15,861 nt of DNA from a bacterium. Its GTDB lineage: Bacteria > Fidelibacterota > Marinisomatia > Marinisomatales > UBA1611. A program made the position numbers. The stretch is from NCBI GenBank assembly GCA_038127595.1, contig JAYPIC010000022.1:9062-24922 (forward strand), given 5' to 3'. Shown here in pieces: positions 1 through 3,000 of this stretch; within the stretch, counting starts at the first letter, position 1, and each line of letters begins with the position of its first letter.

Positions 1-3000
1 GGATTAAAGGTAAAAGTCAATGGATCTGGTAAAGTTATAGAACAGTTTCCAAAACCTGGTAGTTTAAGTAAAAACAGCAAGCAATGTATTCTGACATTAA
101 AGTGAAAAAAAAATTAAAAGCACTAATTAAAGATCTCCATCATAAAAATATAGAGCAAAGTGATATAATGATATCTGGTATAGAGACAAATTCCAAAAAT
201 GTATCAAATGGAGACTTATTTATTGCCATTAATGGGAATAATCAAGATGGGCATATTTATATAAATGATGCCATTAAAAATGGTGCATCAGCAGTTATAT
301 CTAATGAAAAAATATTAAACGATTTTGACAAGCCGGTAATTAATATTGAAAATACTCGAAAAGCAGCTTCAATTATATCCTCAAGATTCCATGATAATCC
401 CTCAAAAGATCTAACTATCATAGGTATAACGGGGACAAATGGAAAAACCACGACTGCGTATCTTATAAAAGAATGTTTAGATTACGCTGGTTTTAAAACC
501 GCACAAATTGGAACAACTGGAGTAATTGCTGAAGGTTACAAGCAAGAAAAAACATTAACAACTCCAGATGCTTTAACCATTCAAAAATTATTAAAAAATT
601 TAGTCAATGATGGGTTTTCCCATGTGGTAATGGAAGTGTCATCCCACGCCCTTCATCAACTTAGAGTGCACAATGTACATTTTGACGTTGCAATTTTTAC
701 AAACTTGACCCCGGATCACATTGATTACCATAAAAAAATGAAAAATTATTTTAAAGTAAAATCCACATTATTTAACCTACTGAAGGAAAAAAATGGTAAA
801 GCTGTAATTAATTATGATGATGATTATGGAAAAAAACTGGCCCCTAAACTCAATTGCGATGTTGCCTTATTTTCAAAAACTAATTTAACAAAATCATTTT
901 TTTCTCAAATAAATGATTATAAAAATAAAATTGATGGAATTATCAAATCTAATACAGGTTCTTATACGATCGAATCTAATTTATTCGGTAGCTATAACCT
1001 TGAAAATATCCTCGCTGCAGTAACTACTTTAGACTCATTAAAAATCAGTGAGAATGCCATCACTCAGGGAATTAAAACATGCAAAAACGTACCTGGACGG
1101 TTGGAATCTTTTTTAGTTAAAACAGGAGCTAAAGTAGTTATTGACTATGCTCATACTCCTGATGCATATGATAAAATTCTTAGTACGTTAAAAAGTATTT
1201 TAACCAAAGAGAATAATTTATATTTGGTTTTTGGCGCTGGAGGAGATAGAGATAGTGAAAAAAGACCAAAAATGGCTGCCATTGCTCAGAAATACTGCAA
1301 AACATGTTTTATAACCCCTGATAATCCGAGATATGAAGAACTAGAGAACATAAATAGAGATATTTTATCAGGGTTTACAAAAAACTGTTATAAAATCTAT
1401 GATAAACGAGAAAATGGTATTCTAGATGCCATAGCGATATCCCAACCTGGTGATATAATTGCAGTACTTGGCAAAGGGGATGAGGAATATCAGGATGTAA
1501 AAGGTCAATTTATTTTTCATTCAGATAAAAAAATAGTTATGGAAATGCAATGAGAGTCGATATTTCAAATTCAACTGAAATTTCCAATGTTATTTTTGAG
1601 CTTTATGGAGTTCAAATCAAGAATACTATAAGAGGAATAACTACAGATAGCAGAAACTTAATGAATGGTGATATATATGTCGCCATTGAAGGAGAAAATA
1701 ATGATGGACATAATTATCTAAACCAAGTGGACGCTTTAAATGCATCGGCAGTAATAGTAGACAAAAACAAAGAGTTTAATAATTTAAATGCACAAATTAT
1801 TTCAGTAGACAATACAATTAAAGCAATCGGTGATATTGCAAAATCTTATAGGCAAAAATTTACTATCCCAATTATTGGAATTACTGGGTCCAATGGCAAA
1901 ACATCCACAAAAGAGCTATTAAGCCACGTTCTTGATGGCGAATTTAAAGTGCATGCCACAAATGGAAATTTTAACACATCAATCGGGCTGCCTTTAACTA
2001 TATTAGAGCTAAATAAAGATCATGATATTTCAATACTTGAAATGGGAGCAAATCAGCAAGGGGATATAGAATATCTATGTTCAGTTGCAAAACCAACCCA
2101 TGGTTTAATTACGAATATTTCCTCGGCTCATTTAGAAGGTTTTGGCTCAATTGAAAACATTGCTAAAACCAAAGGAGCATTATTCTCATCATTAAAGCAT
2201 GGGATGTCATTTGTAAACTATGCTGATGAAAAAGTAAAAATTGCACACTCTACTGGAAATAAAATATCATATGGATTAATCGCAGAGTGCGATTTTCCTG
2301 CTGACATTCATTATGATGACGAAGGATCTATTATATTAACAATAGATACTAGAGAAATACGTACTAATTCAAAAAATCTTTCTTTTGCAAAAAATGTAAT
2401 CGCTGTTGCCTCTATAAGCATAACCTTAGGTTTAGAGTGGGATTATTTTCAAGAGAAAATTTTAACATTTAAACCACCTAAAGGCAGATGTCAAGTATCG
2501 AAGTATGGATCAATAACTGTAATCGATGACACCTATAACTCCAATCTAGAGTCATGCTCTGCAGCAATAGATTATTTATGTGCGTTTTCTGGCACTGGTC
2601 GAAATATAGCTGTGATTGGAGATATGTTGGAGTTGGGGTCTGCATCTAAGAAACAGCATGAAAAATTAGGTAAAAAATGCAATTCATCTAATCTAGATGC
2701 AATTTTCACTTTAGGCGTTGAAACATTGAGCACAAAAAATACTATTAAAAATAAAAAAACAAATGATCACTTTGAAAATCATAATCATTTAATCAGCACT
2801 TTAAAATCATTTCTCATAAGCGATGATAAAGTTCTTTTTAAAGGATCAAGGGGAATGCAAATGGAAAAAATTATTTCTGGAGTTTTTGAAAACTAATGCT
2901 TTCAGACTTTCTACTCCAATTCAAAAATGAAATAAGTTTTTTCAATTTATTTGAATATCTTACTTTCAAAACTGCAATATCTGCAATAACAGCGCTTATT

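Follow-up and report, generated by a model that had tools for sequence, protein, structure and literature searches.

Known genes of diaminopimelate synthesis are missing across the Marinisomatia, and gene patterns suggest a possible sulfur-bridged substitute in the wall

The mur/fts operon and its third-residue ligase

How does a bacterium fill the third position of the peptidoglycan stem when its wall-building operon is intact, its MurE ligase is of the type that adds meso-diaminopimelate (DAP), and the genes for making DAP are missing? The question is raised by the stretch of DNA analyzed here (the window), 15,861 nt of contig JAYPIC010000022.1 (contig C22 of genome G000; contig positions 9,062-24,922, forward strand). 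It encodes the following features, given with profile scores and cut-offs in bits.

84..1553, + strand: murE, the third-residue ligase (NF001126, 494 > 373; TIGR01085, 472 > 257)
1317..1331, + strand: P-DNPR, MurE residues 412-416, the DAP-type motif after an order-specific proline
1470..1487, + strand: GKGDEE loop of MurE, with G463 and E467 kept and the usual conserved His changed to Asp
1550..2896, + strand: murF (TIGR01143, 386 > 289)
2896..3999, + strand: mraY (TIGR00445, 386 > 192)
4007..5368, + strand: murD (TIGR01087, 388 > 212)
5373..6527, + strand: ftsW (TIGR02614, 328, slightly below the cut-off of 337.5)
6517..7623, + strand: murG (TIGR01133, 298 > 250)
7616..9010, + strand: murC (TIGR01082, 517 > 335)
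9003..9929, + strand: murB (NF010480, 312 > 259)
9892..10689, + strand: open reading frame with no NCBIfam or Pfam match, presumed ftsQ from its position
10686..11945, + strand: ftsA (TIGR01174, 343 > 176)
11970..13157, + strand: ftsZ (TIGR00065, 415 > 295)

A complete mur/fts operon had been reported here by an earlier survey of the genome, and the profile-supported order murE-murF-mraY-murD-ftsW-murG-murC-murB-(ftsQ-position frame)-ftsA-ftsZ bears this out. The genes murA, murI, ddl and alr are found on other contigs of G000. A COX1-type motif was also seen in this genome and is compatible with aerobic respiration.

The ligase likewise carries the meso-DAP motif DNPR ascribed to it (residues 413-416), as do 39 of 39 MurEs of the class, the motif script having left two of its 24 loci (G085 and G265) out of the reading; across the phylum the motif is present in 74 of the 75 MurEs read. 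R389, G463 and E467 are kept as the equivalents of E. coli R389, G464 and E468, and we take R389 to be one of the residues specific to meso-DAP ligases. The whole specificity set (DNPR with R389, G464 and E468) is therefore present in the G000 enzyme. The residues that define a meso-DAP-specific MurE are set out in PMC3829189, according to which Asn414 and Arg416 bind the distal carboxylate of the substrate.

In one point the enzyme departs from this type: the His that stands between G464 and E468 (the GKGHE loop) is an Asp. In 37 of the 39 class MurEs another residue stands in place of this His (Arg in 25 of the 39), while the His is present in 77/79 outgroup and 31/36 other-class copies. A change of His467 to Arg would suit a distal carboxylate rather than lysine. 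A further peculiarity is the proline directly before DNPR, which occurs in 23 of 23 MurEs of the order Marinisomatales (two of these being named loci placed in the order by 62-63% identity) and in none of 131 others. The protein as a whole is not strongly conserved: the copies of G000 and of the class member G020 share 38% identity, placing MurE at rank 411 of 565 proteins compared between the two genomes. Judging from these residues, the pocket of the class MurE appears to have been altered with distal-carboxylate binding probably retained. A change of Glu468 to Asp was considered as a fit for a longer residue and rejected, since outside the order it occurs in 6 of the 16 class sequences and inside it in 0 of 23.

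The gap in DAP synthesis

The survey's finding that dapA, dapB, dapF and ddh are absent from G000 was confirmed by phmmer and tblastn searches with E. coli and phylum queries (dapA, dapB, dapF) and by HMM searches for dapB, the DHDPS family, DapF and ddh. No match to dapD was recovered with phmmer or tblastn using the same kinds of queries. G000 thus lacks the combination of dapA, dapB and a route to meso-DAP that marks a DAP and lysine prototroph. The LysW route was not supported for G000, since queries for argB and argC had no match there.

The gap extends to the entire class. Counting over genome samples in which related genomes are not independent, the DapB profile TIGR00036 was matched in 0 of 103 class genomes versus 33 of 118 from other classes, and ddh in 0 of 151, both in line with the absences claimed earlier. 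Of 201 class genomes, 15 scored above the cut-off of the broader DapB_N model; the six loci that were read encode ThrA, an Ord-like dehydrogenase or a Gfo/Idh-like protein, and these matches were discarded as DapB. DHDPS-family genes are, as reported, sparse (27/151), with none in the family UBA1611 to which G000 belongs. They were also rejected as DapA: of 20 loci fetched, 11 were tested, and all 11 scored below the cut-off of 206 bits (best 180; controls 329 and 345).

That the dap genes have simply fallen into assembly gaps might be entertained for G000, which is 95.84% complete and in 133 contigs. At the class level, however, this is refuted by the zero counts for dapB and ddh over genomes of which most are more than 90% complete and one is a single contig, with control genomes yielding matches, and we regard the probability of such an artifact as negligible. 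An unrecognized, non-homologous route to DAP made de novo is very improbable too. ThrA and Asd are present in G000, so that aspartate semialdehyde is made there, and non-orthologous DapE and DapF2 enzymes exist (PMC13759103). Nevertheless, such a route would need replacements for DapA, DapB and the later steps all at once; G020 has neither aspartate kinase nor Asd, and the terms "dapA" and "dapB" do not occur in the GapMind 2026 text.

Scarcity of dapB is also seen beyond the class: it is found in 1 of 26 genomes of family f24, 0 of 33 of f26 and 0 of 4 of f29 (1/63 in all), which belong to other classes, are devoid of the class-type cystathionine beta-synthase discussed below, and keep DNPR. 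Hence, DNPR-bearing lineages of the phylum survive without either gene, which counts against the thioether reading taken up below. The loss in these families agrees with the dependence on muropeptides reported for anaerobic lineages (PMC11652737). The literature searched yielded the IJSEM description but no account of the DAP gap of the class; the Nature Microbiology paper on strain IA91, which lay outside that search, may mention it.

A modified DapF outside the order

DapF, the epimerase of the classical pathway, is present across the phylum. The survey had given it as 3 of 46 genomes, which holds for the order Marinisomatales (3/77) but not for the rest of the class, where 68 of 74 genomes keep it (in family f17, a DapF-like protein is seen in 37 of 42). 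The copies outside the order exceed the TIGR00652 cut-off, and both catalytic cysteines are found in all 27 class copies read, except for a single truncated copy with only the second. At the position of Arg209, however, every one of the 27 class copies has Lys, versus Arg in 23 of 23 from other classes, and the Arg is kept in 126 of the 150 nearest library proteins; the class copies accordingly lack the distal-site Arg209 of a canonical DAP epimerase. In a quick tree the 26 full-length class proteins form a single long-stemmed branch (SH-aLRT 100), and most of the class copies have Gly44. PMC12039745 describes Arg209 as the residue that reads the distal stereocenter, and DapFs bearing Gly44 as epimerizing lanthionine at a speed like that for DAP. 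A change at Asn157 was dismissed as a mark of the class, the Asn being also missing there in copies from other classes.

Most DapF-bearing genomes of the class have no lysA (0/4 in f17), which argues that DapF is not used there to feed lysine synthesis. The proline before DNPR, in turn, marks the order that has no Lys209 DapF. Searches for other enzymes that might stand in for it found a PhzF-fold protein in 0 and a proline-racemase-fold protein in 2 of the 5 genomes tested; with DapF missing as well, these searches reveal no route to a meso form in the order. Class IV aminotransferases, as candidate D-amino-acid transaminases, all fell below the cut-off and gave partial domains only.

Probable salvage of foreign peptidoglycan

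The survey had proposed that DAP for both wall and lysine is scavenged from foreign peptidoglycan, and had placed lysA in an operon with a T9SS-tailed GH18 and NamZ (contig C3, 40370-45358). The operon is as described: lysA and the GH18 gene share 8 bases, and the GH18 gene and namZ share 4, with a convergent Amidase_2 gene about 0.7 kb downstream of namZ. The LysA protein scores 360 bits against an equivalog cut-off of 297.9, and its best 13 PDB matches are DAP decarboxylases, while the best solved relatives of the GH18 domain include, among chitinases, YdhD and the cortex-lytic SleL/YaaH. MurQ, two NamZ proteins, two LD-carboxypeptidases, amidases and an NlpC/P60 protein were all recovered in G000, again as listed before. 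The second namZ adjoins a sodium:solute symporter gene, and the genome further encodes a NagZ-like protein, a dacB-ldcA-spmA-spmB-amino acid permease operon (contig C33), a YkfC-like SH3-NlpC/P60 protein with intact catalytic motifs, and a DgcN/DgcA-like pair that falls below the cut-off.

These genes resemble the YkfABC/NamZ/MurQ type of peptidoglycan catabolism (compare PMC2954226) in the YkfC-like protein, the LD-carboxypeptidase, the enolase-family epimerase, NamZ, NagZ and MurQ; they differ from it in being tied to a LysA that operates without DAP synthesis and to a T9SS-tailed GH18. We accordingly consider it very probable that G000 digests foreign wall and that its LysA converts the freed DAP to lysine.

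How widely this module is kept is another matter. LysA exceeds the cut-off in G000 and in 21 of 32 genomes of the order, so that its retention, as claimed, stands there; in the rest of the class it does so in only 1 of 11. This distribution points to the salvage module as optional. The counts of 63 and 65 of 232 genomes given for lysA-GH18 and lysA-NamZ neighbors could not be reproduced: among 11 class loci, of which two end at contig ends, GH18 follows lysA in 8 and namZ in 3. A lysA without dapB is moreover not peculiar to the class, as it is the rule in f24 (lysA in 25/26, against the single dapB noted above).

For the wall, scavenged meso-DAP would be freed by YkfC or imported as such, MurE and LysA would share one pool, and the Lys209 DapF would epimerize scavenged LL- or DD-DAP. 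Several observations speak for this reading. A ykfC-like gene is found in 122 of 151 class genomes (some of the matches being other NlpC/P60 proteins), with the catalytic motifs of the G000 copy intact; the C33 operon joins carboxypeptidases to a permease, and DNPR is invariant. Cassettes of lysA with a second murE (murE2), some together with ykfB and ykfC, occur in other classes, and a DAACS GltP-like symporter, albeit below the cut-off, in 5 of 5 genomes tested. The dependence on muropeptides has been traced to the ancestor of the phylum (PMC11652737). This reading is a good match to G000 and to f24, f26 and f29, which keep DNPR in spite of lacking dapB and the class-type synthase. On the other hand, none of the 5 genomes tested had AmpG, and Mpl queries matched only MurC, MurD and MurE in G000 and G020; scarce DAP would also be expected to be drained by LysA. 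The survey's proposal therefore divides: the lysine part is well supported for G000 and its order by LysA, the YkfC-like peptidase, the LD-carboxypeptidases, GH18, NamZ and MurQ, and wall use is possible in G000, but scavenging does not explain the class, in which f17 has DapF without lysA and family f3 is without lysA and ykfC, its member G020, searched over its full length, being without the remaining salvage genes too.

Family f3 and the single-contig genome G020

The genomes of f3 measure 0.7-1.1 Mb, and the searches there recovered lysA in 0 of 8, ykfC, DapF and the DHDPS family each in 0 of 16, and any NlpC/P60 protein in 0 of 3. One of them, G020, is a single contig of 969,550 bases that keeps murA-G, mraY, ddl, alr, ftsW, a RodA-like protein and two PBPs, along with a DNPR-bearing MurE and the core of cystathionine beta-synthase. 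Over the whole of this genome we obtained no matches for aspartate kinase, asd, the dap genes, lysA, ykfB, ykfC, LdcA, NamZ, NagZ, MurQ, peptide-binding proteins or the APC permease, and ykfC is cleanly absent from its syntenic site before HNH-trpS. Thus, G020 is left with three options: uptake of free DAP, lysine, or a substitute of its own making. With the peptidase missing from f3 and the carboxypeptidase and carriers from G020, the family weighs against scavenged DAP as the wall residue of the class, and for the class we regard that explanation as rather unlikely.

The second option, lysine (imported or made by LysA) as third residue in spite of DNPR, needs no additional genes. The wall of IA91, which is the sole wall analyzed in the phylum, contained Ala, Glu and Lys (PMC11652737), and this bears both in favor of lysine and against a thioether; with DNPR in nearly every MurE read across the phylum, the motif is probably present in IA91 too. 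A cyanobacterial MurE can also mis-ligate Lys (PMC13130207). However, Asn414 and Arg416, which hold the carboxylate, are invariant in an otherwise fast-evolving MurE, and the pocket often gains another Arg. Furthermore, IA91 builds from donor muropeptides and its Lys may be donor-derived, and the Lys209 DapF would be left unexplained. We consider lysine improbable.

Cystathionine beta-synthase and a candidate thioether residue

A gene that persists even in f3 is that for cystathionine beta-synthase (CBS), represented in G000 by one feature outside the window.

Contig C63, 7668-8621: cbs, a short form without the regulatory tail (TIGR01137, 525 > 510)

A CBS homolog is found in 145 of 151 class genomes (16/16 in f3). 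The short form is present in 129 of the 135 genomes outside family f21; in the 16 genomes of f21 there is instead a distant form (43-47% identity) that is mostly longer (16/16). Outside the genus of G000 the short proteins remain 61-78% identical, with none above 51% in 118 genomes of other classes, and between G000 and G020 CBS ranks 27th of 565 in conservation. The best solved relatives of the G000 protein are plain CBS entries (6vju and 4ofx), which we take to come from DAP-making gammaproteobacteria.

A conventional role would account for this retention. A CGL/MetB-family homolog is found in 140 of 151 class genomes, 7 of which (from f4, f8 and f10) have its gene adjoining cbs, and AdoHcyase and MetK motifs are present; together, these suffice to explain CBS by reverse transsulfuration, from Met to Cys. 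CBS can also make lanthionine, as reported in PMC9232105. In f17, cbs is immediately preceded by a dapF of the same strand at 9 loci, spread over 8 genomes. As this adjacency is confined to one clade, it counts as a single, weak event; moreover, the distance between dapF and cbs is already down to 18-25 kb in 6 other genomes, and gene loss alone could have joined them.

Weighing these patterns, we put at slightly under even (about 0.45) the probability that stem position 3 in the class wall is a thioether, namely lanthionine or cystathionine. This had been the second option of the survey, behind scavenging, and the genomic evidence for it is now the more specific of the two; the corrected DapF count, by which the loss is confined to the order, likewise favors it over the scavenging idea. 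A more detailed version, about which we are distinctly more tentative, holds that thioether cross-links are natural to the class and arise from the short CBS peculiar to the class, a novel epimerase for thioethers that evolved from DapF, and a remodeled DNPR-bearing MurE, with the one order that has no epimerase ligating the L,L form and using LysA only to harvest lysine from foreign walls.

The presence and absence of genes, their motifs and their neighborhoods are observations, and every substrate and flux in the following outline is predicted from them. After loss of dapA, dapB and dapD in the class, a home-made thioether diamino-diacid would fill stem position 3. The short CBS would make L,L-lanthionine or L,L-cystathionine, which outside the order would be epimerized to a meso-like form by the Lys209 DapF. 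Inside the order, MurE might accept the L,L form, or CBS might condense a D-thiol directly; the missing epimerase is the weakest step of the thioether mechanism in this order. Scavenged meso-DAP could also be incorporated when at hand, and it is quite possible that the wall of G000 is mixed, with DAP when it has been scavenged and thioether otherwise. In parallel, the optional module (GH18, NamZ, NagZ, amidases, DacB, LdcA and YkfC) would digest foreign peptidoglycan as food, the sugar being burnt through MurQ and the freed DAP turned into lysine by LysA.

Fusobacteria are the main group in which thioether walls are known to occur naturally. If the thioether reading is right, such a wall in a widespread ocean lineage would alter how the DNPR motif is read, would tie wall growth to the supply of reduced sulfur, and would bear on how well DAP serves to trace organic matter of bacterial origin. 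Should scavenging prove correct, an aerobic class with genomes down to 1 Mb would depend on other cells for one amino acid, and such a dependence would help explain its resistance to culture. Taken together, the DAP gap is real and class-wide, and the genomes speak for a possible sulfur-bridged replacement over scavenging.

Comparison with known systems

Fidelibacter multiformis IA91 and the class AB16 belong to the same phylum, and, as described in PMC11652737, they make neither DAP nor lysine and use foreign wall fragments. By the same text, IA91 is also unable to make MurNAc, D-Ala and D-Glu; G000, in contrast, has murA, murB, alr, murI and ddl and is thus no muropeptide auxotroph of the IA91 type, and it lacks AmpG and AnmK.

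Fusobacterium nucleatum builds a lanthionine wall (PMC11602996 and PMC9600241) by means of CysK1/FN1220. The class resembles it in the absence of the DAP pathway alongside an intact mur pathway, in an orphan DapF-fold protein, and in a PLP-dependent beta-replacement enzyme, which in the class is a CBS able in principle to make a thioether. The differences are that the candidate class enzyme has a CBS-type core with CBS entries as its best PDB matches, that it co-occurs with a CGL-family gene, and that some class members retain LysA. According to PMC11602996, the fusobacterial synthase uses D-Cys, while the orphan DapF (FN1732) proved to act as a histidine racemase, a serious caution for reading the Lys209 DapF as a thioether epimerase.

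In laboratory mutants of E. coli and Mycobacterium smegmatis, a DNPR-type MurE accepts lanthionine or cystathionine (PMC12039745 and PMC9232105), as it would in the class; there, however, these are mutant or fed states, while in the Marinisomatia, if the thioether reading holds, this would be the natural one.

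Gene neighborhoods of lysA across the phylum

In classes of the phylum other than Marinisomatia, lysA is adjoined by a second murE bearing the DAP-type DNPR motif (loci L226-L231, from genomes G252, G243, G231, G246, G218 and G276). Two of these cassettes also contain a YkfB-like epimerase and one contains YkfC, while trpS-scpA-scpB mostly lies downstream of them. The combination of lysA, second murE and ykf genes looks like an ancestral cassette for the recycling of stem peptides. At the trpS-scpA-scpB site of the genome under study (G000), ykfC is all that is left of the cassette (C6:3103-3837).

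The coupling of lysA with namZ, part of the module that we read as one for the salvage of foreign peptidoglycan, is also observed in G206, a genome with both dapA and dapB, where no more than about 10 kb separates the pair from lysC-dapB-dapA (L344). The lysA-namZ link is thus independent of the loss of the DAP pathway. Upstream of the lysA of G000, three ORFs resemble, by eye, a lexA-imuB-dnaE2 mutagenesis cassette (C3:34098-38917).

The LysA-like proteins of family f26 (L342, L343) score about 250-280 bits, under the LysA cut-off; the histidine of the GKGHE loop, typical of outgroup MurEs, is missing from the MurEs of this family too. The DapF-like protein of family f2, found in three genomes, is a distant copy on a long branch, with both catalytic cysteines replaced by serine in the one copy aligned (L359:1045-1881, from G066).

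Candidate importers of wall fragments

One operon of G000 combines peptidoglycan-related genes with spmA and spmB:

L555:4278-9152 (contig C33), dacB-ldcA-spmA-spmB-amino acid permease operon

Genes for spmA/spmB-like Gate-domain proteins occur near lysA in four further genomes (L334, L337, L338, L344), and are absent from G020, an f3 genome that keeps the mur pathway with no match to the salvage module. Given both patterns, we consider these proteins candidate importers of wall fragments.

D-glutamate and other genes

Glutamate racemase is absent from all three f3 genomes searched (G020, G004, G024), each of which encodes two class IV aminotransferases. In G000, a DgcN/DgcA-like pair (D-glutamate catabolism; below cut-off) lies about 4 kb from murA (L212:5973-8368, contig C26). 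In the same genome thrC is matched by two ORFs (C29:13810-15103), a split that may come from an assembly gap or a frameshift. The ORF at the ftsQ position (window 9892-10689) has no NCBIfam or Pfam match.
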